Shown here: positions 2,706 through 18,984 of the stretch, one piece after another | Numbering within the stretch: the first letter of the stretch is position 1 | Layout: every line of letters starts with the position of its first letter | From: a virus | Reading direction: 5' to 3' (one strand) | Virus record (IMG/VR): IMGVR_UViG_3300045988_168459 | Length of the DNA: 18,984 nucleotides | Notes under the pieces: model-generated | What the model was told of the DNA's origin: nothing | The model's input: only the letters and a program-made list of their open reading frames with translations | Database searches by the model: none | Made by a program: the position numbers and the translations under genes

Positions 2706-2730
2706 AGAGCAGAGAATATCTGCTCTTTTT
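2706..2730. terminator. Bidirectional intrinsic terminator between convergent operons
   Basis: Stem AGAGCAG (2706-2712) pairs with CTGCTCT (2720-2726) around a 7-nt loop, with a T-run after it on the plus strand. It lies between the stop at 2668 (+) and the stop at 2729 (-). Confidence 0.7.
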
Positions 2731-3727
2731 ATTTTACTCCTAAATCTTTTAACATTTCATACATAGCTATTTTTATTTCTATACTTTTAAATCTAACTTT
2801 ACCAAACTGAAAATATCTTATTAAGTTATTAAAACAACTATTCCCAATATATTTATTATTTAAGAATGTATTGTCGTTATGGTCGGACGCTAACACGCTA
2901 AAACATTTTGCAGTTTTAGTGGGTTTATCAGTAATGTATAGTATATCTTTTACAACATTACCCCAAATCATATATTTTTTGTTTTTGTATTCAACCGAGA
3001 AATATTCATCACAATGCTTTAAACTCATTTGCTCTACAAATGTATTGCTATCTCTTAAAGATTTATTTTCAATAGCATAATCACTATATTTTGTATTTCT
3101 TATTAGTTTACCAAACTTTGTTTGCTTTTTCATTTCAATAAAAATGTCATCTGTATTGTATTCTATTACCATTTCTCCATCACGAAGTAATGTAAATCTT
3201 TCACCCTCAACTATTTTTGCATTGAAATAAGTAAAGTAGGGATTAACTTTAGTAATGTTATTAGCTAAGAAAAACATTCTTACATTATTTCTAGTTCTTG
3301 CAACAGTTTCATAAAAATCTAAAGCAACATCAACTTCATTAGGAATATATCTCATACTTACGCTTTTATCAACAATAAATTCATCAAACATTATTGTAGT
3401 TACGTTTGGATAAGCAACCGATTTATACCTTTGTGAAACACTTAGTGCAACCGGAAATCCTGCGACTTTCCCATCTATATGAAATTTTCCCTGCTTATAT
3501 TCCAATTTGTTGTTTGGAAATTTATTTCTTATATCATCAAACCATTTATCATTATCTTTTAATTCTGTTTTCCACCTTCTTAAATATATAAACTGCTCAC
3601 CTTTTTTCAGAAAGTTTTTAATACATTTTTTTTTAAGTCCATAACTTTTACCAAACCCTCTATTTGTCAAAATAAAATTCCAAATCGCATTATAACTACA
3701 TATTTTATCATAATTGTAATAATTCAT
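2729..3727 (-). CDS. DNA encapsidation (packaging) ATPase, phi29 gp16-like
   Basis: Colinear with remembered phi29 gp16: Walker A RGFGKSY, GEQFIYLRRWK, DGKVAGF..LSV, AYPNV.TI.FDEF (Walker B), YIPNEV, NPYF. RBS AAGGAGG. Confidence 0.95.
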   Translation of the reverse strand: MNYYNYDKICSYNAIWNFILTNRGFGKSYGLKKKCIKNFLKKGEQFIYLRRWKTELKDNDKWFDDIRNKFPNNKLEYKQGKFHIDGKVAGFPVALSVSQRYKSVAYPNVTTIMFDEFIVDKSVSMRYIPNEVDVALDFYETVARTRNNVRMFFLANNITKVNPYFTYFNAKIVEGERFTLLRDGEMVIEYNTDDIFIEMKKQTKFGKLIRNTKYSDYAIENKSLRDSNTFVEQMSLKHCDEYFSVEYKNKKYMIWGNVVKDILYITDKPTKTAKCFSVLASDHNDNTFLNNKYIGNSCFNNLIRYFQFGKVRFKSIEIKIAMYEMLKDLGVK

Positions 3728-3748
3728 ATTTTACCTCCTTAAAGAAAA

Positions 3749-3765
3749 AGCACCATTTAGGTGCT
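3749..3765 (-). terminator. Short hairpin between the holin-like gene and the ATPase gene (possible attenuator)
   Basis: AGCACC - loop - GGTGCT palindrome, followed on the minus strand by TTTTCTTT. Confidence 0.35.
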
Positions 3766-3769
3766 TGTC

Positions 3770-3937
3770 TTATTTTTGAAATTTATTTTCTAAAGTTTCC
3801 ATGCGTGTTGATAATTCTTTTAATGTTACATTAAGATTAACTAATGCGTCTGTAAATTTAGCATTGTTAATAAACATTACAATACAACACCCGATTGGAA
3901 AACCTACATTTGAAATCATACTTACTATTTCTTCCAT
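3770..3937 (-). CDS. Holin-like small membrane protein, 55 aa (BhlA/UviB/YvrJ-like topology), not in the ORF track
   Basis: Hand translation gives MEEIVSMISNVGFPIGCCIVMFINNAKFTDALVNLNVTLKELSTRMETLENKFQK. This is one N-terminal TM segment plus a charged helical tail. An upstream purine-rich RBS (GAGAGAGG) is present. It occupies the phi29 gene-14 (holin) position just before the packaging ATPase. Confidence 0.55.
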   Translation of the reverse strand: MEEIVSMISNVGFPIGCCIVMFINNAKFTDALVNLNVTLKELSTRMETLENKFQK

Positions 3938-3982
3938 ATATTTTTACCTCTCTCATATAGTTTTACATAATTTAACTTATTG

Positions 3983-4543: not shown

Positions 4544-4561
4544 ATTTATTCCTCCTTTTAT

Positions 4562-4598
4562 ACAATAAAATGTAAAATTTGCATTTACACTTTATTGT
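4562..4598. promoter_or_regulatory. 37-bp near-perfect palindrome overlapping the promoter -10
   Basis: On the minus strand ACAATAAAGTGTAAA-tgcaaat-TTTACATTTTATTGT forms 15 pairs if one G-T is allowed. It overlaps TACAAT at 4594-4599. Confidence 0.6.
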
Positions 4599-4622
4599 AT
4601 GTTTATATAATTATATCGTGAA
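4594..4622 (-). promoter_or_regulatory. Promoter TTCACG-17-TACAAT (minus strand)
   Basis: The reverse complement of 4617-4622 is TTCACG, then a 17-nt spacer, and the reverse complement of 4594-4599 is TACAAT. It shares the CATACAATAAAGTGTA context with 12371-12387. Confidence 0.45.
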
Positions 4623-4651
4623 TATAATACATAATTTTTATCAATTGCGAA

Positions 4652-6418
4652 TTAGTATTGATACATAGGGCAAGTTATATTAATTTTTAGAATATAATTT
4701 GTATCATTTTTAGAGTCGCAAAGAATGGTTCTACTATCATACATATCTTTTGTTGACATTATACGTATTTTTTGTTCACCAGAATTTATATAACCTCTTA
4801 TATACCCCATACATTGAAAGTTATTTTCGGTCATAATTCCATATTCAACTGGGAAAGAATAATCTCCATCTTTAAAATACATATAACTATTGGGTAACGT
4901 TCCTATACCTATACCAATTGTCGAAGGTAACACTCCTTTTTCGCTAGGGTTATATTCAAATTCAACTTGTAAAGAAAAAGTTTCTTGTGCTAATTTTATT
5001 ATATTTTTATTGATTGTTAATGATGTTGTAGTATTTATTAATTCATTGTTCATACAGCTTTGAAGTTTATTAAAACTATAAAAATGGTCTGTTGTATTTA
5101 GTTTTAACAATGTATGATTATTAGGGATATTTGTAATCTCATATTTATAGCTTCCATCTGTAGCTTTAAATCCATTCATTAAGCTACCATTCATTGATAC
5201 CCTATCTAGTAATGAAGCATTTGCGTCTTTGCAGTAGAAAATATAACCTTTATCTCCTTTTGAAAATATTTCATCACTTAATATTTCATAACTATTAAAA
5301 CCATAATTGTTAGTTATACTTAACTTTCCTTTATCCCCCATATAATAATATATTTGTTGGGTGTCGGGATAACATTTATCTAATATTACATGGTGATAAG
5401 AGTTCATTTTAAAAAATATTGAGTCTTTCCACATAACTTTAGGGTTCGTTATTAAACCATGAACCTCACTATAAAAGCAATTTCCTGAATTGTGTTCAAT
5501 AGAAATATGACAGTTAAATATATCCATATGGCTAACTACATTATCATAAACATTATTTTTAAAACCTATTGTATTAATTTTTGTTTTATTACCTTGTAAC
5601 CATATATAATTAAATTTATTAACATTCCCTTCATCACATTGAATACCTACACTATTTATATTTATAATTTTTATTGATTTAAATTCTCTTCTTTGAGAAA
5701 ATGAAAGTTTTAAACCTATATTTGAAATATTATTGCAATCTATAATAATATTTTCTATTTTACCATTATAACTATTTGAACCTTTATGATAAATGTCAAT
5801 TGCTGGATTTTCTGTAGTTGCCTTTATTGTAGAACCGTTGAAATTGGCATTTAATACACCATTTATATTTAATGTAGCATTTATTATATAAGTTTTATTT
5901 TTTTTTGAAACCAACAAAACATTATTAGATATAGCATAGTTTATAGCATTTTGTAATCTTTCAGTATCATTCGCTCCTTCAACCATTTCTGGTGTGATAA
6001 AAGTTGTAATATTATCCAATTCTGAATTAAATTCGTCAATTGTACTTTGAAAAGTTTCATTGTTTACTTTTTTATTAATTTCATTTTTATTTTCTTCAAT
6101 TTTATTACTATTTTCTTCAGCTTTATTTTTAGCATAATCAATTTTATTTTTATTATCTAATATTTCATTTTTATTAAATTCAATTTTATTATTTAGTTGA
6201 ACTTGTATATTTTCATCAATTATTATTCTTTTTAAACTTTCATAATCACTTTTAATTTTTTTCATTAAAGTAACTAAATTTGTATCACTTAATTTAATTT
6301 TTTCTGAAAGTTTTTCAATGACTTTTCCTAATCTCTTCCATTGCTGAAAGTCGATAGCATTTTGGTCTTGTAATTCTTTTACATTTTGTTGAATTTTGTT
6401 TATATCATTATCACTCAT
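4652..6418 (-). CDS. Pre-neck appendage / tailspike, 588 aa, with an N-terminal coiled coil and a right-handed beta-helix (pectate-lyase-like) domain
   Basis: Start moved to the ATG at 6418 (MSDNDINK), which has RBS AGGAGG. The track start at 6457 has none and overlaps the upstream gene. The beta-helix entry motif TPEMVEGANDTERLQNAINYA is followed by N/I/G-rich repeats. The position matches phi29 gene 12. Confidence 0.75.
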   Translation of the reverse strand: MSDNDINKIQQNVKELQDQNAIDFQQWKRLGKVIEKLSEKIKLSDTNLVTLMKKIKSDYESLKRIIIDENIQVQLNNKIEFNKNEILDNKNKIDYAKNKAEENSNKIEENKNEINKKVNNETFQSTIDEFNSELDNITTFITPEMVEGANDTERLQNAINYAISNNVLLVSKKNKTYIINATLNINGVLNANFNGSTIKATTENPAIDIYHKGSNSYNGKIENIIIDCNNISNIGLKLSFSQRREFKSIKIININSVGIQCDEGNVNKFNYIWLQGNKTKINTIGFKNNVYDNVVSHMDIFNCHISIEHNSGNCFYSEVHGLITNPKVMWKDSIFFKMNSYHHVILDKCYPDTQQIYYYMGDKGKLSITNNYGFNSYEILSDEIFSKGDKGYIFYCKDANASLLDRVSMNGSLMNGFKATDGSYKYEITNIPNNHTLLKLNTTDHFYSFNKLQSCMNNELINTTTSLTINKNIIKLAQETFSLQVEFEYNPSEKGVLPSTIGIGIGTLPNSYMYFKDGDYSFPVEYGIMTENNFQCMGYIRGYINSGEQKIRIMSTKDMYDSRTILCDSKNDTNYILKINITCPMYQY

Positions 6419-6428
6419 AATATACCTC

Positions 6429-7082
6429 CTAAAAAACAAATAAGAATAAGTTTTCAAGTTCTTTAAATATCATTAAGTCTATGTTAATTAAAACATTTCT
6501 CCATTTTTCTAAAAGTTCTGCACTTGATGTAACACCAATATTACCTTGTGATATTAATTCATACTCTTCTATATTATTTGACTTATTTTTTATTGTATTG
6601 TTTGCATTTGATGTTGAATTATTTGTTGAATTACTATTACTTTTACTTGCTGATGTCATGTATTTATCTAAGTCGTCAATTTTATTCTGTGGTGTATCAT
6701 TAGCAATTGTTAAATCATTACTGGTAGATGTGTTATCACTACTAGAAGTGGCTTGACTATTTCCCTCACTTTCTCCGTTCAACTTTCTTATATAACTTTC
6801 TTTTAAATCTTTATTTAGCATAAAATCTATATTTTGACATCTTATTTCTGTTTCATAAAGTTGTTTATATTTTGGATAAATGTCATTTAGTGTGGAAATT
6901 AAGTGTTGTTTAAAAATATTAATATTATCAAATCCAATTTCATAAAACATAAAGTGCTGAAAGAATTTTTCTTGAAAGTAAGGCTTTAACTCATTATTAT
7001 ATAAGTTATAAGGTTGGTCAAATAAATTGTAAGTATCATCTTTATAAATGTAATAAAGTTGTAATGTATATTTACTACTCAT
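6429..7082 (-). CDS. Lower collar protein (phi29 gp11 position), 217 aa
   Basis: Start moved to the ATG at 7082 (MSSKYT), with RBS AAGGAGG and an ATGAGTAG overlap with the portal stop. The call rests on synteny immediately after the portal gene. There is a central S/N/T-rich low-complexity region. Confidence 0.6.
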   Translation of the reverse strand: MSSKYTLQLYYIYKDDTYNLFDQPYNLYNNELKPYFQEKFFQHFMFYEIGFDNINIFKQHLISTLNDIYPKYKQLYETEIRCQNIDFMLNKDLKESYIRKLNGESEGNSQATSSSDNTSTSNDLTIANDTPQNKIDDLDKYMTSASKSNSNSTNNSTSNANNTIKNKSNNIEEYELISQGNIGVTSSAELLEKWRNVLINIDLMIFKELENLFLFVF

Positions 7083-7938
7083 TATTTTCCTCCTTTTCCT
7101 CATCATCTTGATAATATTTAGTTATCATTTTTTTGTTAGGTAATACTTTTACATTTAACCCAAATTTTTTATTAATTTCTTCACATGCTTGAAGTCTATT
7201 TTTATACATTAACATTGCATTTGTACTAATAAAATCATTATTAGAATTAATTTCATCTGTTAATAATCTTTCTTTTTTCTCAAAATTATTATTTAATGAT
7301 AAAAAAGTTAATATTTCTCTTTCAAGTTCATATTTATATTCGTTTAGTTTATCAGCTACATAAGGCGTTGGCATAGTTAACACTTCTAATGCATTATCCC
7401 CTAGTCCAATTTCCTTATTAGCTAAAATAAAAGGCTCAAAATTTTCTACCTTTTCAAATATTATTTCTAGTGATTTTTTGGTTTTTTCTGTCGCATTAAT
7501 GAACCATGGAAATTTTTGTTGATTTATATTTGCTCTTATACACATTTCAACTTCTAACATTCTTTCAGCATAATTAGCAATATAATCCCTTGTTGCTTTT
7601 GCTAAATCATTATTTCTAATTAAAACACAATCTTTATTATTTATATAATTAATAGTTTTTATATAATTATAACCCGAAGTTATTACCTCTGTACTTTCAC
7701 CATTGATATTCATTTCAGCTCCATAATTGCAAGGTACTGAAATTAATCCCATGTTGTTATCATCATTTACTAGACATAGACCACATTCATACAAAGCATT
7801 TTCAATATATCTTGAGTTCATAGTTTGAGGTAAATTTTCCCATGTAAACATGTTTAAAGCCAACATTTTATAATAATCATAAATTCTAGTAAAATTTATA
7901 TTTTTATAAACTTCTATTGCTTGTTTATTTTTACTCAT
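7075..7938 (-). CDS. Portal / upper collar connector, phi29 gp10-like
   Basis: Motifs shared with remembered gp10: F.WENLP.T.N, PYV.DKLN, EKKER..TDE..SN, GLNVKV. RBS GGAGGTG. Confidence 0.92.
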   Translation of the reverse strand: MSKNKQAIEVYKNINFTRIYDYYKMLALNMFTWENLPQTMNSRYIENALYECGLCLVNDDNNMGLISVPCNYGAEMNINGESTEVITSGYNYIKTINYINNKDCVLIRNNDLAKATRDYIANYAERMLEVEMCIRANINQQKFPWFINATEKTKKSLEIIFEKVENFEPFILANKEIGLGDNALEVLTMPTPYVADKLNEYKYELEREILTFLSLNNNFEKKERLLTDEINSNNDFISTNAMLMYKNRLQACEEINKKFGLNVKVLPNKKMITKYYQDDEEKEENNE

Positions 7939-7942
7939 AATA

Positions 7943-9232
7943 TTACACCTCCGTATTCCCTTGTAATTGACTTACTGAATAATCTCCAACACTTGCACCA
8001 TTATCAACATGCCAAATCGTTACACCTCTATTAAATATGTCTTTTATTTCTTCTAAGTATTCATGTGGTATTTCCTCCCCTACAATATTACAAGTATTTG
8101 TTTTAATAAAGTTAAAATAACGTCTTGAATTTACATTAATTTTTTCCCATTTATTAACCTTATACCCATACTTCACAAAATAATCATATATTCTATGCTT
8201 GTATCTAAAATCTAATCCAAATTCTATAATATCTATCTTTCTATTACTATTTACTAAATTAAATAGCGTGTCGTTACCACTTGTTTTGATTGAATTTGGA
8301 GTATTTAATAAGTCTGTTGTTTTAGCATTTGCCATTGACGATACTTCAAAATTTGATAATTTATTTTGTTCTTTTAATTGACTATTATTTAAATTATTTG
8401 ATAATGTATTAAAATGCTGGTTTATTCCTGCTTGTGCCACTCCCATTGCTCCGTTCACAACTCCACCAAAATTTAGTGAAAGTAAACTTGCAATTGCACC
8501 TAAACCACTACTAATACCCTGCATGTAATTATTTGTTGTATTTTGTCTATAATTTAAATTATTAGTTGCTAATCCTTGCTTTAATGATAAATCATTTTCT
8601 AACATAGCATTAATATTACCTTGGTTAAAGCTTGCTGAACTTGTTGCTAAAAATTGAGAATAAGCACTCGATAAAACTGGTAACATTAGAGGACTATTAT
8701 TGACAATTCCATTTAAATTTCCATTATAATCTCCTTTGTAACCATTAACATATAAATTATACTTACTTTCTGTTGCAATATTTGTTGCTTTTACTCTTAA
8801 TTTTAATGTCTTATTTTCGCATAATTCGGGTTTTATTACAAGAGGAGTATTCATGTAGTCAGTTACCATAAAATAACGAAAAGGAAAAGTGTATAATTTT
8901 GGTTCAAATGTAGGTAATCCATTATCACTATCGGGAAAAGTGTTTAATTCATATAATTGTTTATCAATTGTATCAAATCCCGACATTCTGTAACATTTAG
9001 GTATACCCCCCTTAGGTGAGCCATATCTATCACTATCGAATGAACACTCAACTATTGTACTCATATCATCAACTTCAATAAAAGGGTTGTATGTTAAACT
9101 TTGGATTGTATCAACAAATCCCAAGTAAGTTGCAGTATTAATTTTTTCCCTAGGTATACAATAATAATATAAACCAACTGGAATATTTCCCATTACACTA
9201 CTTTCAATGTCGTTTCCACTTACAATACTCAT
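7943..9232 (-). CDS. Tail knob protein, phi29 gp9-like middle and C-terminal portion (429 aa)
   Basis: Matches remembered gp9 at LYYYCIP (gp9 LCYYIHP), EPKLYTFPFRY (gp9 ESKLMMYPYC), the Gly/Ala-rich hydrophobic loop GISSGLGAIASLLSLNFGGVVNGAMGVAQAG, and the C-terminus F.KYGYK.N......R.YFNFIKT......IF.RG.T.WH. Confidence 0.88.
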   Translation of the reverse strand: MSIVSGNDIESSVMGNIPVGLYYYCIPREKINTATYLGFVDTIQSLTYNPFIEVDDMSTIVECSFDSDRYGSPKGGIPKCYRMSGFDTIDKQLYELNTFPDSDNGLPTFEPKLYTFPFRYFMVTDYMNTPLVIKPELCENKTLKLRVKATNIATESKYNLYVNGYKGDYNGNLNGIVNNSPLMLPVLSSAYSQFLATSSASFNQGNINAMLENDLSLKQGLATNNLNYRQNTTNNYMQGISSGLGAIASLLSLNFGGVVNGAMGVAQAGINQHFNTLSNNLNNSQLKEQNKLSNFEVSSMANAKTTDLLNTPNSIKTSGNDTLFNLVNSNRKIDIIEFGLDFRYKHRIYDYFVKYGYKVNKWEKINVNSRRYFNFIKTNTCNIVGEEIPHEYLEEIKDIFNRGVTIWHVDNGASVGDYSVSQLQGNTEV

Positions 9233-9244
9233 TCATTACACCTC

Positions 9245-10795
9245 CTAATCATTTATTATACTTCTATATCTATAATCGTCATTTGGTGTTCTATCATTTT
9301 CCATTATATTTGTACCAGTTTGTTTAGCTTCTATTACATGAATTGAACCATCACTATTTTTAGAAATAAACATAACTACATGACCATTATCTGTTTTTCC
9401 TCTTGTGAATACTAAGTCCCCCATTTTTAAATTGTCAAATGTTGTTTCTTTACCATCATTTATTTGTGTGTATGTTGTCCTTGAAATTTTTATTCCATTA
9501 TCATTATACGCCCATTGACATAATCCCGAACAATCAGTTCCATTATCTGAACCAAGTGGAGGGTAATTGCCACCCCACACATAAGGTTTACCTAGCAATT
9601 TTCTTGCACTTGCAATTACATTTTCTCTTATTGTAGAATGTGACGGTTCTTGTCTGTTATATGGAGCTGGTATATAACCCATACCGTTATTATCTGTTAT
9701 ATAACCACTACCGTCTAATATTTCAATTTTTTTATAATTATAGTCTGCATTTAAAAATACATTAGCTTCAGCCTTTCTTCTATTTCTTAAACCTTGCTCA
9801 AATTGTGAACCAGCCATAATAACAGTTGTTTTCCAAGTTTCTGCTATACTTTCTTTACTATCACCATTAATATATTTTGTAAATATTGAGCGACTTGTTA
9901 AACTTCCAGTATTATAATAAAAATCAACAAAAGCGTCAAACTCATTTTGTTTCATTTTATTCATGTCGAAGCCATATGAAACAAAAGTATCATGTACATA
10001 TTTTGAATAATTTTTATACAAACTATCACCCAATACCTCTGACGCTTGTTGTTCCGTACATTTAGGAGCAAGTTGATTATAATGCGCACTATCATATTCA
10101 CTTGTTGTACCATACCCAATAGTGAAAGTTCCATCCCCTAAATTGTAAGGAGTTGAAGAAAATCCTTCACTTTGTTTTATGAAGTAAATACCTAACATAC
10201 TCATGTAACCATCTTTGTATAATGTAGATTGATTACCAGTTGAACCACCACTAGAACCACCATTTATCATTCCAAGTCGTGTAGAACTTGTCAAAAAATA
10301 ACACCCTTTATCGCTATAGTCATAAGCATTGTAAATTTCTTGTACTTTTAACTCACCAACTTCCAAATCTTCGGGTTCTAATAAATTATCCAAGTCAATA
10401 TTGCCGTTACTGTCAAATCTATTACAATGTTGTCTTTCTATATAACTTTCGATTTTATCAAATTTAATGTTAAAATAATAAGTTTGAAATACATCTAACT
10501 TTAATGTAAGTTTTGTACTGTTTTCTGTTACATACTCTTTATTTACAATGAAAAAATATTCCCATCTTGTTCCATTGTTCCATAGACAATAATTATAATT
10601 CATACAATCATCAATATATTTATCAATTGTTAAACTTCTTTCCTTTCTTAAATAAGTACATTCTGTCATTACATATTTTGCTTTATTTAAAAACCAATTA
10701 ATTTGATTATTGATATTTGTAAAATTTACAGTATGATTATAATTAATATCAAGTTCGGGAATACTACAAAAGAATACTTTGCTTAATCGTGGCAT
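9245..10795 (-). CDS. Tail-associated peptidoglycan hydrolase, 516 aa: gp9-like N-terminal domain, phage lysozyme (GH24-like) domain and NlpC/P60 endopeptidase domain
   Basis: Residues 1-125 resemble the gp9 N-terminus (NWF, W.YFFIV, DVFQTYYFNIKF...IERQH). Residues 205-345 carry the lysozyme signature SEGFSSTPYNLGDGTFTIGYG and GLRNRRKAE. Residues 395-480 carry NlpC/P60 motifs GKPYVWGG, DCSGL (Cys) and GHVVMF (His). Confidence 0.9.
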   Translation of the reverse strand: MPRLSKVFFCSIPELDINYNHTVNFTNINNQINWFLNKAKYVMTECTYLRKERSLTIDKYIDDCMNYNYCLWNNGTRWEYFFIVNKEYVTENSTKLTLKLDVFQTYYFNIKFDKIESYIERQHCNRFDSNGNIDLDNLLEPEDLEVGELKVQEIYNAYDYSDKGCYFLTSSTRLGMINGGSSGGSTGNQSTLYKDGYMSMLGIYFIKQSEGFSSTPYNLGDGTFTIGYGTTSEYDSAHYNQLAPKCTEQQASEVLGDSLYKNYSKYVHDTFVSYGFDMNKMKQNEFDAFVDFYYNTGSLTSRSIFTKYINGDSKESIAETWKTTVIMAGSQFEQGLRNRRKAEANVFLNADYNYKKIEILDGSGYITDNNGMGYIPAPYNRQEPSHSTIRENVIASARKLLGKPYVWGGNYPPLGSDNGTDCSGLCQWAYNDNGIKISRTTYTQINDGKETTFDNLKMGDLVFTRGKTDNGHVVMFISKNSDGSIHVIEAKQTGTNIMENDRTPNDDYRYRSIIND

Positions 10796-10816: not shown

Positions 10817-10836
10817 AAAGGGGAAAATTCCCCTTT
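10817..10836 (-). terminator. Strong hairpin just after the capsid gene (probable leaky terminator)
   Basis: AAAGGGGA (10817-10824) pairs with TCCCCTTT (10829-10836) around a 4-nt loop, followed on the minus strand by TCTAATATT. It sits in the 44-nt gap before the next RBS. Confidence 0.5.
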
Positions 10837-10839
10837 ATA

Positions 10840-11886
10840 TTATTCTTTTACTACAAATTTTACACAATTTACAAAGTTACAACTTGCAACAATTCCCCAT
10901 CTATTGAACCAAACATTTGTGTAAAGTGCTTGTGGGTTTCTAAATGTTTCAGAACTGTTTAAAGTTTCCCATATTTGTATTGCTTCTTTATCACAAATTA
11001 TACATTGAGTTTCTGTATCTTCGCCATAAGTGTAAGTAGAAGTTGACTTTGTGCATTTTTCGAAATAATCAATTGGTAATACATGAAGATTAATTTCGTC
11101 ATAACTTACATTAAATGCTTGTGCTAATAATTGAACGTCCATGACTGCAAGTAAGTCAGTTGGAACAAAGCAAACTAACTCATTAGGTTTACTGTATGTC
11201 ATTACACCTTGACCGTTATAATTATTAGATAAAAATTTCATCTTTAATATATAAGATTTTATTGCAGTAACTAAGCTTTCAGCCTTAGCTTTTAATGTTA
11301 ATTTATCATATTCAGTTTTTCCAATTTTTACTTCAGCACCTTTTATGTGAGCAAGTGCATGTTTTACTAATAAAAAATCATCATATTCAGCAGAATTTAA
11401 AGGTGCTTGTAAAATTCTACTTGTTAATTCACTTAATCCGTTTTCATTTCTAAACGCTCCCTTTAATTCCTCGTCAGAAATAGTTGCTTGATATTGCATT
11501 TGTTTATTTTCACTATAATATTCAACCGTTACCTTTGGTGCTTGCCTACTTAATAAATCACTTGCTAAATTTGTTGCAGTTGTTTGTCTTGTTCTATCTT
11601 TACCTTTTACAATATCAACAAAAATACTTTCAATTGATTTTCCGTAAGGTAGTATTCCTTTTTTAAATAGCTTGTACGGATTTTCATAAGCCTTATTAAA
11701 AAATCTTTGTTTAGCAACTTGGTTTGTAAGTACAGTTACAAACTCGTTTTTTACCGTAGGATAAGTTGAAATAATATCAGCAATTTTGTGCATATTTGCT
11801 TTTGTAACATCACCTATTCTATCATTAAATTCTTGACTTGTTGCACTTGCAAGTGCTTTTGTAAAAGTAACATTATCTAATGCCAT
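10840..11886 (-). CDS. Major capsid protein, phi29 gp8-like (HK97 fold), 348 aa
   Basis: Shared blocks with remembered gp8: N.F.T.L...., NP.K.FKKG..P.G..IE.I..DI.K.K, LA.AFN, ET.RNP..LY. RBS AGGGGGA. It follows the scaffold gene. Confidence 0.9.
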   Translation of the reverse strand: MALDNVTFTKALASATSQEFNDRIGDVTKANMHKIADIISTYPTVKNEFVTVLTNQVAKQRFFNKAYENPYKLFKKGILPYGKSIESIFVDIVKGKDRTRQTTATNLASDLLSRQAPKVTVEYYSENKQMQYQATISDEELKGAFRNENGLSELTSRILQAPLNSAEYDDFLLVKHALAHIKGAEVKIGKTEYDKLTLKAKAESLVTAIKSYILKMKFLSNNYNGQGVMTYSKPNELVCFVPTDLLAVMDVQLLAQAFNVSYDEINLHVLPIDYFEKCTKSTSTYTYGEDTETQCIICDKEAIQIWETLNSSETFRNPQALYTNVWFNRWGIVASCNFVNCVKFVVKE

Positions 11887-11898
11887 AATTTATTCCCC

Positions 11899-12180
11899 CT
11901 ATTTATCAAAATTCTTTAAAATATAATCTATGTCAATTTCATTATCAACATCTTTTTTAGAAGATGTATTATTATTCGAATTATTTGAAACTGGTATTTG
12001 CTCGAACAATTCATAATTTTTTATTTTTAATCTATTTATTTCTTCATTTAAAGAAGTTATATTGTTTTCTTTTTCTGTCATTGCTACTTTTTGATTTTCT
12101 AACAAATCATTTAAATTTTTATTTTTATCTTCAATTTTCTTTATATATTCTTTTGCCTCTTCAATTGTTTTAAATTCCAT
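11899..12180 (-). CDS. Putative scaffolding protein, 93 aa, coiled coil
   Basis: Small, acidic and heptad-rich, directly upstream of the capsid gene as phi29 gene 7 is. RBS AAGGGGG. Confidence 0.6.
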   Translation of the reverse strand: MEFKTIEEAKEYIKKIEDKNKNLNDLLENQKVAMTEKENNITSLNEEINRLKIKNYELFEQIPVSNNSNNNTSSKKDVDNEIDIDYILKNFDK

Positions 12181-12214
12181 AATTTAACCCCCTTATTCAT
12201 TATACTTTTATATT

Positions 12215-12369
12215 CTTATTAAAACCCTCATTTAAGAGGATTTTATAAAAATACAAAACTGCAATTATTTAAATGTATATAATAGTGTTGCAAATCACAA
12301 TATTACAGTTAAAGGCTCTTCACCTTTGCACTTAACTATAAGTATTATATTTAAACTTTTAAATAACTA
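12215..12369 (-). ncRNA. Candidate non-coding RNA or long structured leader of about 150 nt (pRNA candidate)
   Basis: The region is bracketed by the promoter at 12376-12404 and by a hairpin at 12221-12244 (AAAAUCCUC-uuaaau-GAGGGUUUU, which has a G-U pair only in the minus-strand RNA) followed by U-rich sequence. There is no RBS or ORF. A locally GC-richer core contains several short complementary segments. Confidence 0.3.
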
Positions 12370-12375
12370 CACTTT

Positions 12376-12404
12376 ATTGTATGTAAAAATAAAATAAAGG
12401 TTAA
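12376..12404 (-). promoter_or_regulatory. Promoter TTAACC-17-TACAAT (minus strand) upstream of the late block
   Basis: The reverse complement of 12399-12404 is TTAACC, then a 17-nt spacer, and the reverse complement of 12376-12381 is TACAAT. The -35 lies in the 3' arm of the upstream terminator hairpin. Confidence 0.5.
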
Positions 12405-12418
12405 CAAAAGTTAACCTT
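12397..12418. terminator. Intrinsic terminator after the sigma-like gene
   Basis: AAGGTTAAC-aaaa-GTTAACCTT perfect 9-bp stem with T-rich sequence on both sides, 19 nt downstream of the stop at 12437. Confidence 0.7.
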
Positions 12419-12436
12419 TTTTGTATTATTTTTGTA

Positions 12437-13126
12437 TTAATTGTATAATAATTCTTTTATTTCCTCATCTTTTTTGTTTTTAACAATTTGTTTTCTTAAA
12501 CATTCTACCCTTAAATAAACTGTATGTCTTGTAAATTCTTTCCCTTGTTTTGTTTTATAACCATGTTTGGTTAAATAGTTGGCTATTTGACTAAAACTAA
12601 ACCCATCTGATAACATATATAAAATTATTTTATTAATTTCATAATAATAAGAATTTCCACAATCTAAGATTTCATTTATTGCAGTTTCTAAAGTTTCAAA
12701 ATGGTATTCATCTTCTTTCCCAGTATACCTATCAAGTAAATTTTCTCTTTCACTATCACCATTATTTTCTAAAATGTAATCTGTAGAATAATCAGCTCCA
12801 AATTCATTAAATTTTGATTTTCTATCGTTATCCCTTAACTTACTACCTAACTCTCTAAAAATTACTGTTGCTACAAAAGTGTTAGCACTTGATATTTCAT
12901 AATTTAATTGACACCAAACCTTGCTTAATTTTACACAAACAATTGATACACAATCTTCATAGTCTAACTTTAATCTATTGAAACCACTTTTATATTTATC
13001 ATATACCACTTTTACCCTTGCATAAATATATTTCATATTTTCCTCGCAAAACTCGTTAAAGTCTTTATAAATTTTTCTTTCCTTTAATTCTCCAAACTTA
13101 TTTTCTCTTACTATTACTTTACTCAT
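12437..13126 (-). CDS. Sigma-70-family (ECF / group-5-like) RNA polymerase sigma factor, 229 aa
   Basis: Start moved to the ATG at 13126 (RBS AAGGGGA, 9-nt spacing). The region-2-like block is DYEDCVSIVCVKLSK...TFVATVIFRELGSKLRDNDRK. The region-4-like HTH is ILYMLSDGFSFSQIANYL...TVYLRVECLRKQI. Confidence 0.6.
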   Translation of the reverse strand: MSKVIVRENKFGELKERKIYKDFNEFCEENMKYIYARVKVVYDKYKSGFNRLKLDYEDCVSIVCVKLSKVWCQLNYEISSANTFVATVIFRELGSKLRDNDRKSKFNEFGADYSTDYILENNGDSERENLLDRYTGKEDEYHFETLETAINEILDCGNSYYYEINKIILYMLSDGFSFSQIANYLTKHGYKTKQGKEFTRHTVYLRVECLRKQIVKNKKDEEIKELLYN

Positions 13127-13150
13127 TTTCACCAATCCCCTTTTATTTTA

Positions 13151-15310
13151 TTATCTTTCAAAATAATTATTTAAACTAATCATGTAAGGTTGTTCTTGTA
13201 TTATTGTACCACCTTTTATAATTTTACTCTTTTTAGATTTTATTAACCCTTTAATCTTTTGTGTACATGCTTTATCTTTATAATAATATATACTACCTTC
13301 TTTTGTAAAGTATTCCATTTTTGCTAATTCTTTTGCAGAATATTCGCAAACATCAAATACTTTTATATCATCTAACTTTTTCATTATTTCATCAGTTAAC
13401 CCACAACATTTAATTTCCCATTTATGAGTTTTAGTATTTTTTTCTGCATATCTTTTAGAACCGATATATTTAAAATCTTCAAAACACATTTCATTATCCC
13501 ATAATCCATATATTTTCTTTCCAATTTCAACACCTTTTACTTGTTCAATTGTTCCAAACAAATGTAAACTGTCAGTATCACAATACATAAATCTTTCATA
13601 GTTGTTATTAATTGCTTGAACTAAATATTGTTTCGCCCAGCTTGTAATGAAAGTTGCCATTGGTAAATATATTGTATCACTTACAACATTTTCATGTGTG
13701 TGTTCAATTGTGAATACATCATCTACATTTTGAAAGTTTGTTAATTCTGTAACTCCTGCCATACCAAACTTACCATACAATCCATTTTGCATTAGCTTTG
13801 CAAATGCCCTTAAAGCACCCTCGTTTTCTTGTTTTATTTTGCTCCAAAAATCAATGTAATTTTTAAACAAATTATAACTCCCTCTAAAAGCCATATGACC
13901 ACCAAGTTTATAAGCCTTTACATCATAACATTCAAAAAGCAAATCCAATAAAACGTTTGTTAATCTTAAATGTAATGTTACTTTTTTCCCATCTTTAATG
14001 TTATTTTTTAAGCACTCCCTTCCACTAAAATATTTGTTGTCTTTTACTTGTAAGAATGACATTTTATTCTTTTTAACTTTCAAATCAAAAATCGTTATAT
14101 CTTGAATGTAAAGAGGGTAAACTTCTTTATATTTTTCATTCATATTTTTATATGGAGTATCCCTATATTGTGGGTCGCCATAAGGTAATAATCGTGAAGT
14201 CATTACAAAAGGATATAATGAATTAACATCTAAAACAATACCATGTTTATTTTTTCTTTTACTAAACTTTTTCACATTATTATATTCAACAGTAGAAAGA
14301 CCACCATAGTAACTATGCCTTTGCCATGCGTCTTGGAAATATGATTGCTTTGGAAATAAAGCTTCAAAAATTATATTACTTTTTATTTCTGTTACATTAC
14401 CTTTATTTTTTAGTTTATGAAAATTTGTTTTCATTAGTTTAGTATCAACCATTTCATATAAATTTTCATTTTCAAAACCATTTTGTTTGTTAATATAATC
14501 TTCTAAAAGTGTTAATTTATAATTTGCTAATGCTTGACCCGAATTTGTAAGTTTATCATATTTAATCTTTTGACCGTTTAAATCAATACCATTTATTTTT
14601 AATAATTTCACTAAATAACTTAATCCATAAACGTCCTCATAAATATACGTCATTTCTTGCTCTGTTAAATCATCATCAAGAGTTCTTTCTTTATCATAGT
14701 CTAAACCATCTTTACCCAAATTCAATCCTAGAAAATCAGAACAACATTTTTTTAATGAAAACGGAGCAAGTTTAAAGGTATCATAAAAATTTATTAATCC
14801 AAATTCTGTTGCTATTGTTAATTTATAAAATACACCATTTTTCATAAGTAATCGATATTCAAAAGGTTTTAATTCTTTATTTTCTTTATCAGAACTTTGA
14901 AAGTTTAAAACCTCATAAATTTTTTCAAATTCATTCCATTGTTTTTTCAAAAAATAATCCTCTTGTCTTTGTTTATTTCCATATCTCTTTACAAAGTCTA
15001 GTAAAAAAGGTTTTACATCATATAAGCAGTTATGAGCAAATAAATTAATTTGTTTACAATTTAGATTTATTAACATATCATTAAATTTACTAACATTATT
15101 GTACCAGTAACATAAATCACTATCATTATTACAACTCATAAGAGCAATTGAATAAGTTAACATCTCACTTTTATTATTTATTGCACACGCTTCTATATCA
15201 AATGCAAAATTCAATACGTCTCTTTCACTTGTTGCTTTTATTTTATCTTTAGAAATATAATTCATAATCCCATTATTCTTTATATCTTTTAACCTTTTAT
15301 TCAAATCCAT
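13151..15310 (-). CDS. Protein-primed family-B DNA polymerase, 719 aa
   Basis: All signature motifs are present: ExoI FDIEA, ExoII HNCLYD, ExoIII YIYED, motif A DVNSLYP, motif B KLMQNGLYGKFG, motif C YCDTDS, and KxY (SKRY). Confidence 0.97.
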   Translation of the reverse strand: MDLNKRLKDIKNNGIMNYISKDKIKATSERDVLNFAFDIEACAINNKSEMLTYSIALMSCNNDSDLCYWYNNVSKFNDMLINLNCKQINLFAHNCLYDVKPFLLDFVKRYGNKQRQEDYFLKKQWNEFEKIYEVLNFQSSDKENKELKPFEYRLLMKNGVFYKLTIATEFGLINFYDTFKLAPFSLKKCCSDFLGLNLGKDGLDYDKERTLDDDLTEQEMTYIYEDVYGLSYLVKLLKINGIDLNGQKIKYDKLTNSGQALANYKLTLLEDYINKQNGFENENLYEMVDTKLMKTNFHKLKNKGNVTEIKSNIIFEALFPKQSYFQDAWQRHSYYGGLSTVEYNNVKKFSKRKNKHGIVLDVNSLYPFVMTSRLLPYGDPQYRDTPYKNMNEKYKEVYPLYIQDITIFDLKVKKNKMSFLQVKDNKYFSGRECLKNNIKDGKKVTLHLRLTNVLLDLLFECYDVKAYKLGGHMAFRGSYNLFKNYIDFWSKIKQENEGALRAFAKLMQNGLYGKFGMAGVTELTNFQNVDDVFTIEHTHENVVSDTIYLPMATFITSWAKQYLVQAINNNYERFMYCDTDSLHLFGTIEQVKGVEIGKKIYGLWDNEMCFEDFKYIGSKRYAEKNTKTHKWEIKCCGLTDEIMKKLDDIKVFDVCEYSAKELAKMEYFTKEGSIYYYKDKACTQKIKGLIKSKKSKIIKGGTIIQEQPYMISLNNYFER

Positions 15311-16128
15311 TAATCATACACTCCTTTTAAACCTTTAAGTGTTTTATATTTTTCTATTGATTTAGTAACAGTATCATAAATATTTGTTTCAATTCTTTCT
15401 TCGTTTCCAATTACACTATCTTCGGGGTATCTATCTCTTAAATCTCTTAAAACTTCTTTAATCCACATATCTTTTTGTAGTGGTGATAATCTATTATATT
15501 CTTTCCTTATCATTTCTTGTATATAAGGCTTACACCCTAACTGTATGCTAGGTGATGTCATAAATTCATTATTAAACCAATTGTCATTTTCTGTACTGTC
15601 TGTTAATTTTTTATAGACATTGATAAATTTTATTTCTTTCATATCTTGTTTGAACTTCTTTATCATTTCCTTTTTAGTTTTACTGTCTGCAATGTAAATA
15701 TCATCTAAATGTTGTAATGGAATACCATCATAAATAAATGATTTTTTATCGTAATAAGTTAGAAATAAATCTTTACCTTTAAGGTAATTTACTTGTAAAC
15801 TAGGTAAATTCATAGTTTCAAGTGCTTGGAGTGTTTTATCAACTTCTCTATTGAACTTTTTAACAGTTTGATTATATTGATAGTCAATTGACTTTTTATA
15901 AGATTTTTTTATACTAGTTTCTTTTTTAATAACAGAATTTAATCCAGTAGTAATTTTATTAACTGCTTGTGTTAATTGCCTTTGTGTAAGTGATTTGCCT
16001 TGCAAATACGTTGGAATTGAGTACCCTAATAGTTCATATTTTTTAACTAAATATTTAATTTTTTGTTTATCATTTTTATTTGAAAAGTCTACCCTTTTAA
16101 GACCACTTAATTGACGTTTAGCGTTCAT
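15310..16128 (-). CDS. Putative terminal protein (replication primer), 272 aa
   Basis: Immediately upstream of the polymerase gene and translationally coupled to it (TAATG overlap). Its size matches phi29 gene 3 (266 aa). It is basic and Lys-rich. The call rests on position, not on sequence similarity. Confidence 0.65.
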   Translation of the reverse strand: MNAKRQLSGLKRVDFSNKNDKQKIKYLVKKYELLGYSIPTYLQGKSLTQRQLTQAVNKITTGLNSVIKKETSIKKSYKKSIDYQYNQTVKKFNREVDKTLQALETMNLPSLQVNYLKGKDLFLTYYDKKSFIYDGIPLQHLDDIYIADSKTKKEMIKKFKQDMKEIKFINVYKKLTDSTENDNWFNNEFMTSPSIQLGCKPYIQEMIRKEYNRLSPLQKDMWIKEVLRDLRDRYPEDSVIGNEERIETNIYDTVTKSIEKYKTLKGLKGVYD

Positions 16129-16177
16129 AATATATCCCCCTCCGAACCACTAAATCTTTAACCCTTTCCTTAATTAT

Positions 16178-16206
16178 ATTTTACCAAATATTACTCATGA
16201 TTTCAA
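16178..16206 (-). promoter_or_regulatory. Promoter TTGAAA-17-TAAAAT for the TP-pol-sigma operon
   Basis: The reverse complement of 16201-16206 is TTGAAA, then a 17-nt spacer, and the reverse complement of 16178-16183 is TAAAAT. Confidence 0.55.
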
Positions 16207-16220
16207 TAGAAAATACGAAA

Positions 16221-16246
16221 AATAGAGGATAATTTTATCCCCTATT
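16221..16246 (-). terminator. Intrinsic terminator after the small-gene early operon
   Basis: On the minus strand AATAGGGGA-taaaatta-TCCTCTATT (one mismatch) is followed by TTTTTCGTATTTT. It overlaps the stop codon of the MazG-like gene. Confidence 0.6.
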
Positions 16247-18449: not shown

Positions 18450-18460
18450 TTTAACACCTC

Positions 18461-18529
18461 CTATAAATCAGCTATTATGTATGAAGAAAATAATATAATA
18501 AATGAAAATACTATTATTGGTAATAACAT
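18461..18529 (-). CDS. Hydrophobic micro-peptide, 22 aa (MLLPIIVFSFIILFSSYIIADL), copy 1
   Basis: The ATG is preceded by GGGAGGTG at 6-nt spacing. It lies entirely within the repeat unit. Confidence 0.4.
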   Translation of the reverse strand: MLLPIIVFSFIILFSSYIIADL

Positions 18530-18541
18530 TTTATCACCTCC

Positions 18542-18607
18542 CTATATTATATTGTATGAATAATTTTTAAAATCTCTTCCACTTGTACAATAAAAACAAA
18601 TTTTCAT
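18542..18607 (-). pseudogene. Truncated duplicate of the 5' end of the 95-aa gene (MKICFYCTSGRDFKNY then SYNII-stop)
   Basis: Created by the tandem duplication. It has the same RBS and first 16 codons as 18449, then runs into repeat sequence and stops. Confidence 0.6.
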
Positions 18608-18618
18608 TTTAACACCTC

Positions 18619-18687
18619 CTATAAATCAGCTATTATGTATGAAGAAAATAATATAATAAATGAAAATACTATTATTGGTAATAACAT
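18619..18687 (-). CDS. Hydrophobic micro-peptide, 22 aa, copy 2 (identical)
   Basis: Identical to 18461-18529 with a +158 offset and the same RBS. Confidence 0.4.
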   Translation of the reverse strand: MLLPIIVFSFIILFSSYIIADL

Positions 18688-18708
18688 TTTATCACCTCCC
18701 TATATTAT

Positions 18709-18737
18709 ATTGTATGAATAATTTTTAAAAAAGTTAA
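18709..18737 (-). promoter_or_regulatory. Right-end early promoter TTAACT-17-TACAAT
   Basis: The reverse complement of 18732-18737 is TTAACT, then a 17-nt spacer, and the reverse complement of 18709-18714 is TACAAT. It abuts the inner ITR boundary, mirroring the left-end promoter. Confidence 0.55.
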
Positions 18738-18984
18738 TAAATATTTAAAAGAAATTTATAAAAATTTTCGACAAATATTATATCAAGATATGGAGCAATA
18801 ATGTTATAATTATATATAGGATTATTATACGGTATTTGATACTATATATTATGTATGGAACTGTATGAATATATGGTAATGTATACTATATAGGACAAGC
18901 GAACAGATGTTTTACCTATATGGTATTGATTACTACTTAATGGGGGGAAAGATACCACCCGAAAAATGTGCTAAGGCATTTTTT
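18737..18984. repeat. Right inverted terminal repeat (ITR), 248 bp
   Basis: Exact reverse complement of 1-248. Confidence 0.97.

Follow-up and report, generated by a model that had tools for sequence, protein, structure and literature searches.

A conserved structured RNA ahead of the morphogenesis genes of a phi29-like phage, probably a divergent packaging RNA

What does a stretch of 256 nucleotides (nt) without a gene do directly in front of the structural genes of a small phage? The question is raised by positions 12181-12436 of the IMG/VR virus record IMGVR_UViG_3300045988_168459 (18,984 bp; in the following, the window, i.e. the whole stretch of DNA that was analysed), a gap that lies between an open reading frame (ORF) in the scaffold position (start 12180) and an ORF for a protein of 232 amino acids (aa; end 12437), both on the minus strand. 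A first reading made from the letters only (below, the sequence-only reading) had proposed that the gap holds no gene and encodes a packaging RNA (pRNA) for a phi29-type motor. To current knowledge pRNA is unique to phi29 and related Bacillus phages, according to a review of 2024 (PMC11476376). Our analysis supports the proposal, every sequence-testable feature having turned out positive. That the gap encodes a functional structured RNA is close to certain, and we consider it likely that this RNA either belongs, as a divergent member, to the prohead (packaging) RNAs of phi29 type or is a near structural analogue of them.

The lack of a gene was borne out, in that the only ORFs that overlap the gap encode 20-23 aa and all lie on the plus strand; a small protein was rejected on the same grounds, i.e. 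size and wrong strand. It also holds that the core is locally richer in GC: positions 12290-12335 have 34.8%, where the gap as a whole has 21.1% and the genome 25%. Read along the minus strand, the gap has first the terminator belonging to the upstream gene and then, in succession, a -10 box, a structured core of 112 nt, a 3' hairpin and the ribosome-binding site (RBS) of the scaffold-position gene. The core has the following parts.

12260-12371, minus strand: structured RNA core of 112 nt, like domain I of pRNA, from covariance model and covariation
12371-12358 with 12273-12260: outer part of helix A
12357-12351 (7 nt) against 12276-12274 (3 nt): internal loop of helix A
12350-12343 with 12284-12277: inner part of helix A
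12342: single unpaired base between helices A and C
12303-12341, minus strand: C-E arm
12341-12332 with 12312-12303: C helix, 10 base pairs (bp)
12331-12326: 5' bulge GUGCAA, equivalent of the CE loop
12325-12323 with 12315-12313: E helix
12322-12316: E loop UGAAGAG
12299-12302: U-rich junction strand UAUU between helices C and D, with the UUU bulge of the three-way junction as its phi29 counterpart
12285-12298: D hairpin, stem 12298-12296 with 12287-12285, loop AUUUGCAA at 12295-12288, followed by the 3' strand of helix A with 0 unpaired bases in between
12330-12326 (UGCAA) with 12293-12289 (UUGCA): loop-loop contact of the bulge with the D loop

The evidence for this fold is primarily covariation. 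One written-down structure was tested on a MAFFT alignment of 31 distinct variants (A3), with controls in which the 3' partners were slid by 1-3 columns, and on a larger set of 41 distinct members that includes more distant ones and was aligned by covariance model. In A3, 94.1% of the cells pair, against 36-50% in the slid controls; both sides have changed in 26 of the 43 pairs, and none of 500 shuffles reaches any of the measures. Among the 41 members the pairing amounts to 96.0% (slid controls 36-46%) and compensatory changes are found at 39 of 42 pairs, so that the structure is indeed conserved across relatives, the check that the sequence-only reading had suggested. Without a supplied structure, RNAalifold yields helix A-inner and helices C, E and D. 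Per element, the C helix shows compensatory changes at all ten of its pairs in the larger set, and in the D stem all three pairs covary with 99.2% of the cells paired. The contact between bulge and D loop, a helix that was left out of the covariance model, has 93.2% of its cells paired and four of five pairs compensatory; 4-5 of the 5 pairs are in register in every one of the 41 distinct sequences. The complementarity between loops that had been thought worth looking for is therefore present, and it covaries in at least seven combinations: UGCAA/UUGCA, (U/C)ACCA/UGGUA, UAUC/GAUA, UACUA/UGGUA, CACCG/UGGUG, AUCA/UGAU and UAUCA/UGAUA, with GCCA/UGGC in the cultured Clostridium phage phiCPV4. The four short complementary segments that had been noticed in the core now have their place in the fold, each confirmed by covariation: AAAGG/CCTTT forms the E helix, AGTT/AACT belongs to the C helix, GTG/CAC makes up the D helix and TGCAA/TTGCA is the contact from bulge to loop. 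The motif GTGAAGAGC is unchanged in all 31 sequences of A3 even though the surrounding stems are wholly different, and appears in the distant members as GCGAAGAGCC, GUGAAGAAC or GGUGGAGA(A/G)CC.

With respect to the strand, two G-U/U-G pairs in helix A are unchanged across all 31 sequences, and we therefore take the minus strand to be the RNA strand. The predicted folds are -37.2 kcal/mol (z = -3.9) for the minus-strand RNA and -23.2 kcal/mol (z = -2.0) for the plus strand. A covariance model built from A3 (R1; a second model, R2, was made from the same RNA family) has a single match in the window (12252-12377, minus strand) with 119.8 bits, the runner-up scoring 16 bits. Alignment of the gap with seven IMG/VR relatives (capsid identity 87-97%) showed that the non-coding part is conserved above the flanking genes. 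No other stretch of the genome is as conserved as the core, which is 92-99% identical to the relatives compared to 72-95% for the coding genes at the nucleotide level, and the few substitutions that it has among close relatives occur as pairs that preserve base pairing. Relatives with 60-70% capsid identity have other genes upstream (SSB and a small ORF where the window has the 232-aa gene and PolB) and retain a gap of 250-280 nt before the scaffold and capsid genes.

The architecture thus outlined was compared to that of phi29 pRNA, for which the minimum-free-energy fold and the consensus structure line of Rfam family RF00044 served as reference. All elements of the pRNA secondary structure were found, i.e. 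helix A, three-way junction, C, 5' CE bulge, E and D, with covariation behind every helix. Both RNAs have a core of 112-120 nt with paired 5' and 3' ends, and in both an outer helix A is followed by an internal loop on the 5' side and an inner helix A of 8 bp. The junction strands measure 1, 4 (U-rich) and 0 nt in the gap RNA and 1, 3 (UUU) and 0 nt in phi29. The C helix has 10 bp (9 bp in phi29), the 5' bulge 6 nt (9 nt for the CE loop of phi29), and the E hairpin 3 bp with a 7-nt loop (4 bp with a 6-nt loop); the E loop itself, the invariant UGAAGAG, is unlike that of phi29. In phi29 the last four bases of the CE loop, AACC, pair with GGUU of the D loop, and the gap RNA has its complementarity at the same two places, where 4-5 nt are maintained by covariation. 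On the 3' side, finally, both RNAs continue with a single-stranded linker and a hairpin domain.

The window starts and ends with perfect inverted terminal repeats of 248 bp (1-248 and 18737-18984) and is therefore a complete linear genome, of 25% GC. Its gene set is of phi29 type as judged by Pfam matches (and PHROGs in the case of the lower collar):

2729-3727, minus strand: packaging ATPase of the gp16 family (Pfam Podovirus_Gp16, E = 1.5e-74, full length)
6429-7106: lower collar (PHROGs match)
7075-7938, minus strand: connector (portal) of phi29 type (Pfam Phage_connector, E = 5e-51)
7943-9232: tail knob
9245-10795: tail lysin
10840-11886: major capsid protein (MCP) of phi29 type (Phi29_MCP, E = 6.3e-77)
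11899-12180, minus strand: scaffold-position ORF of 93 aa, start codon at 12180
12437-13135, minus strand: 232-aa protein with a helix-turn-helix (HTH) segment
13151-15310: PolB of the protein-primed type
15310-16128: ORF in the terminal-protein position

A pRNA of phi29 type is expected in a phage that has a gp16-family ATPase, instead of a large terminase of the nuclease type, and a phi29-type connector, and the window encodes both. The gp16 protein is 38% identical to that of phi29 and is encoded by the final gene of the minus-strand late block that the gap RNA heads. It is presumed to be the protein partner of the RNA, and the connector is presumed to be its docking site on the prohead. 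The terminal repeats, PolB and the ORF in the terminal-protein position fit protein-primed replication; the encoding phages of both RNAs thus have the gp16 ATPase, the phi29 connector and protein-primed replication in common. The capsid protein is at best ~30% identical to that of phages in GenBank, the nearest being podoviruses of Clostridium perfringens. The close relatives of the window come from human-gut metagenomes, and a scan of the capsid-protein alignment against GTDB genomes returned no relative, so that no host can be named.

The complete genome offers no other pRNA candidate. As the sequence-only reading had it, no pRNA gene is present elsewhere: the complete genome has no match to RF00044 or to any other Rfam family, no further match to the RNA model besides that in the gap, and no tRNA. 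The sites that were considered as rivals (1-338, 1598-1957, 3728-3982, 4544-4651, 16129-16241 and 18450-18984) were rejected, being less conserved and without a model match. The largest of the other non-coding gaps, 1598-1957 (360 nt, between plus-strand genes), has promoter-like sites at 1703-1731 and 1884-1912 and a bidirectional terminator-like hairpin at 1835-1858; it is just 73-74% identical in the clade with 87% MCP identity and has no match to the RNA model.

How widely is the RNA distributed? DNA similarity searches against 50,697 phage records gave nothing for the region or the RNA, and scans of IMG/VR for exact 16-mers from two invariant core segments retrieved only close relatives and chance matches; a partial 16-mer match (contig L027) was rejected because it lies inside a coding region. 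The covariance models reach further. In phiCPV4 the best match has 25.6 bits with R1 and 30.2 bits with R2 and sits in a 213-nt gap before the scaffold-position and capsid genes, i.e. in the same place as in the window. The phiCPV4 RNA has 56% GC in a genome of 35% GC and carries its own complementarity (GCCA/UGGC, see above); taken together with contig L145, the RNA has 56-65% GC within loci of 35-46% GC. The phages phiZP2 and CPS2 show compensatory changes at the phiCPV4-type RNA. In total 17 records of C. perfringens phages (phiCPV4 and 16 others) carry the sequence at 91-100% identity. None of the 17 is annotated with an RNA, and in three a 'hypothetical protein' has been placed over it; for instance in CPS2 (L184:399-521, CPS2_5) and also in phage cpx an ORF of 40 aa is annotated there, which is probably spurious.

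In addition, 80 diverse phi29-like contigs were gathered via an alignment of gp16 and searched with R1 and R2. In six of these (L156, L114, L115, L168, L159 and L131), which have a gp16 ~38-43% identical to that of the window, gp16 is the very next gene after the RNA. The L156 unit consists of an HTH gene, a TTGCCA-17-TATACT promoter, the RNA, an RBS and gp16, and the capsid gene of this contig is found on the other strand at a distance of 7.5 kb. Another group, richer in GC (L141, L143, L145, L146, L149, L151 and L181), has the order PolB, promoter (TTGACA-17-TACAAT with TG before it), RNA, gp16, scaffold-like ORF and MCP; in L145 (5275-5303) the RNA promoter falls within the 3'-terminal part of the PolB reading frame. 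In every arrangement the RNA is promoter-proximal and accompanies the morphogenesis/packaging module, in some lineages gp16 specifically. Within the genomes searched it was found only in phi29-like genomes with gp16, beside morphogenesis or packaging genes.

The reading as a divergent pRNA is favoured by four observations: the topology matches exactly, including the positions of the covarying complementary loops; every RNA-carrying genome found has the gp16/connector motor; the RNA has relocated to a place beside gp16 in some lineages; and no other candidate exists in the complete genome.

The elements at the two ends of the RNA are these.

12396-12419: bidirectional terminator-like hairpin, AAAGGTTAAC-N4-GTTAACCTTT, closing the 232-aa gene and found on both strands by the terminator scan
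12376-12404, minus strand: promoter-like element, TTAACC (12404-12399), 17-nt spacer, TACAAT (12381-12376)
12206-12258, minus strand: 3' domain, a long hairpin, the outer AU-rich stem of which pairs UAUUUUUAU with AUAAGAAUA
12188-12194, minus strand: RBS AAGGGGG of the scaffold-position gene

The TTAACC-17-TACAAT promoter had been read on the minus strand and is present there. The match alone is not significant, because promoter-like sites are barely enriched genome-wide (188, against 159 +/- 11 in shuffles); support for the promoter derives from the position of the -10 box, which in every clade precedes the opening pair of helix A by 4-7 nt. The RNA would then begin at ~12372-12368 on the minus strand. 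The 3' arm of the terminator-like hairpin overlaps the -35-like TTAACC, and this hairpin is near-invariant among the relatives. A second promoter, TATAAT at 12203-12198, was rejected: it is too near the RBS, and the stretch is deleted in the L004-L008 clade. Between the 3' hairpin and the scaffold RBS some close relatives carry tandem repeats of a 16-nt unit, TATACTCATTTACGAG / TATACTTATTTACGAG, (L003:6190-6310, also L002, L073, L077 and L079, at the equivalent of ~12205-12195 in the window), with ~1 copy in L002, ~7 copies in L003 and none in the window and L004-L008.

At the 3' side, the sequence-only reading had singled out a hairpin at 12221-12244, better paired on the minus strand and followed by U-rich sequence. 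The first part stands: the inner hairpin 12244-12221 (AAAAUCCUC-UUAAAU-GAGGGUUUU) allows a U-G pair on the minus strand alone. It proved to be the tip of the longer hairpin 12258-12206, however, and past the full stem no usable U tract is left. The inner stem covaries in relatives (CCUC/GAGG to CCAC/GUGG; A-U to G-C), and the types L061, L050, L048 and L087 form an equivalent long 3' hairpin from different sequences; phiCPV4 has a small 3' hairpin only. The 3' hairpin was rejected as an intrinsic terminator, since the stem consumes the U run and other clades have no U tract; neither is it listed by the terminator scan. The idea of a unit delimited by promoter and terminator therefore had to be given up, as there is no canonical terminator and the RNA most likely forms the start of the late mRNA, with which it is, for lack of that terminator, probably co-transcribed. 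A free RNA would require leaky termination or processing, and it is plausible, if speculative, that the ~20-bp 3' hairpin is an RNase III-type site. Herein lies a difference with phi29, where the pRNA is a separate early gene at the genome end whereas the gap RNA would be the 5'-terminal segment of a late morphogenesis transcript.

By analogy with phi29 the following course of events can be envisaged. Transcription would start at ~12370 on the minus strand, from a promoter just past the terminator of the early/replication genes, and the first 112 nt would fold into the three-way junction, in which the closing helix of 5' and 3' ends would correspond to the phi29 arm that holds the gp16 ATPase, and the C-E arm together with the D hairpin to the part docked on connector and capsid vertex. 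The last 4-5 bases of the bulge might pair with the D loop of the molecule next to it, such that several copies form a ring on the prohead, and the invariant E loop UGAAGAG could be a site of protein contact. The long 3' hairpin may, more speculatively, act as a processing site or stabiliser that frees the RNA from the mRNA. In more general terms, we lean slightly towards the view that pRNA is an ancient and widespread part of the gp16 motor, with a second, sequence-unrelated class in the Guelinviridae and in uncultured phi29-like lineages of the human gut; in this class the RNA would be synthesised as the leading part of the late or gp16 mRNA, motor RNA and motor proteins thereby sharing one transcript, and would become free through processing at the conserved 3' hairpin or else be loaded during transcription.

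Several results weigh against a pRNA. The first group concerns the relationship to phi29. The RF00044 model, with which the sequence-only reading had wanted the RNA to be checked, does not recognise it: there is no match in the window at the gathering score (100 bits) or even at E <= 10, nor any in phiCPV4, L156, L145, L048, L050 or L061, while the same model scores phi29 pRNA itself at 145.4 bits. Conversely, R1 and R2 have no match in the entire phi29 genome with filters off. The models fail in both directions, and homology hence rests on architecture. A permissive Rfam search of the window gave only noise (snoRNA, MALAT1, Phe leader), all with E > 0.8. Moreover, the D hairpin consists of 3 bp and an 8-nt loop as opposed to the 6 bp and 5-nt loop of phi29, and the pairing between bulge and D loop could equally be an intramolecular pseudoknot, as the sequence cannot distinguish the two. 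The second group concerns the transcript: in all cases the RNA follows closely on a promoter and is itself followed directly by a coding gene, like a cis-acting leader; no second promoter was found between RNA and scaffold RBS in the window and its relatives; the 3' hairpin has no U tract; the clades with the RNA beside gp16 have no 3' hairpin at all and the RNA there ends 10-20 nt before the RBS; and no discrete 3' end is evident from the sequence.

The best surviving alternative, which we nevertheless hold to be unlikely, draws on this second group. The RNA would then be a cis-acting 5' leader of the late/packaging operon without a role in the packaging motor, active for instance in antitermination (of the lambda Q/6S or HK022 put type), binding of a late regulator, autoregulation by scaffold or gp16, or protection against 5'-exonucleases. 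Indeed, in all arrangements seen a promoter marks the start of the RNA and a coding gene comes straight after it (terminator-promoter-RNA-scaffold, promoter-RNA-gp16 and RNA-gp16-scaffold-MCP), with neither a second promoter nor a canonical terminator to separate it from the mRNA, and the late block has internal terminator-like hairpins, e.g. at 10817-10836. There are also precedents: the RNAs of the lambda pR'-6S RNA-tR' unit (Q antitermination) and the put RNAs of HK022 are short structured transcripts that open a phage late operon, and mRNA stabilisers in Gram-positive bacteria are known to include helices in which the 5' end is hidden. Neither a stabiliser nor a put-like element needs a three-way junction of 112 nt, an invariant 7-nt loop or a covarying complementarity between bulge and loop, however, and the element-by-element match to pRNA would be a coincidence. 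The lambda 6S RNA ends in a strong intrinsic terminator and needs Q, whereas the gap RNA has no U tract past the full 3' hairpin and no Q-like protein; put consists of two simple stem-loops whereas the gap RNA forms a three-way junction; and both 6S and put lack such a junction with its covarying loop-loop complementarity. The protein encoded upstream has only a recombinase/integrase-like HTH, no Q-like or antiterminator family was detected in these 232 aa, and other clades have the RNA without the gene. Furthermore, the gene downstream varies by clade (scaffold or gp16), which argues against autoregulation by one protein, and a unit with gp16 only, as in L156, hardly requires antitermination. 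The roles of leader and of motor part could be compatible within one RNA.

Much less probable is a structured phage RNA that acts in trans with another function, such as a decoy of RNA polymerase or of a defence system or a protein sponge, in which bulge and D loop form an intramolecular pseudoknot. Covariation proves structure and not function, the pairing of bulge and loop is formally compatible with a pseudoknot, and no Rfam family has sequence similarity to the RNA; against this stand the restriction to gp16-carrying phi29-like genomes, beside morphogenesis/packaging genes, and a topology equal to that of pRNA, in which, from geometric considerations, a C helix of 10 bp next to a D helix of 3 bp sets the complementary loops far apart. 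That there is no functional RNA and that the conservation reflects DNA-level signals (a late promoter, operators, a packaging or replication site) or recent ancestry, for which it can be said that the gap sits between early and late genes, a place where binding of regulators is to be expected, and that the closest relatives are drawn from few metagenomes, is barely credible and effectively refuted already by the covariation results, since pairing survives many double substitutions between clades with wholly different helix sequences (at 60-70% MCP identity or 35-50% gp16 identity), the G-U pairs are strand-specific, and slid controls drop to ~40% pairing, a pattern that DNA-binding sites do not yield.

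In the literature on pRNA outside the Bacillus phages only one old and unconfirmed proposal turned up, that for Streptococcus phage Cp-1, where a putative pRNA was predicted in 1996 (as cited in a passage of PMC6266182). Cp-1 is a phi29-like phage of a non-Bacillus host, and a published covariance model of Nf/GA-1 did not reliably find its pRNA. Its layout is that of the window, with a terminator (4659-4682), the late promoter PL1 with a mapped start at 4740, ~136 nt, and the scaffold gene at 4876. R1 has no match in Cp-1 (L099). The late transcript of Cp-1 starts with AGCAAG and has CUUGCU ~80 nt downstream (L099:4659-4876), from which a closed structure of the leader seems possible. Papers on C. 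perfringens phages name pRNA only as the presumed partner of gp16 (PMC3362512). We found no report of an RNA as described here for the Guelinviridae or for podoviruses of C. perfringens, staphylococci or lactococci in a literature search that covered subscription journals thinly, and it is absent from Rfam 15.

The pRNA of phi29 is a widely used building block in RNA nanotechnology. Should the gap RNA be a pRNA, then dependence of the motor on RNA would extend to a far broader range of small podoviruses, with consequences for the question whether pRNA is ancestral or was acquired late, and a second, independent sequence family with the same architecture would reveal which features are required (junction lengths, pairing of bulge and loop, E loop). 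It would be accessible in the cultivable phages phiCPV4, phiZP2, CPS2 and CPQ, and its mode of expression would be a different one, i.e. as the leader of a late mRNA. Should it be a cis-regulatory leader instead, then it is still a new and well-supported family of phage RNA outside Rfam.

Three minor observations concern the neighbouring genes. Residues 171-220 of the 232-aa protein match only the HTH part of recombinase/integrase families; its gene is the least conserved of those compared (72-73% DNA identity), and in the clades of L048 and L050 SSB and a small ORF take its place while the RNA is retained. The protein may be a regulator of late transcription. Contig L156 (4834-6583, minus strand) encodes its PolB in two pieces, the adjacent and overlapping ORFs 5420-6583 and 4834-5466, which correspond to successive segments of the DNA_pol_B_2 profile; a frameshift, a sequencing error or programmed recoding could lie behind this. 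In the window, a terminator-like GC hairpin, AAAGGGGAAAATTCCCCTTT, lies at 10817-10836, directly past the capsid gene and within the late block, and its location suggests attenuation of the downstream tail and packaging genes.

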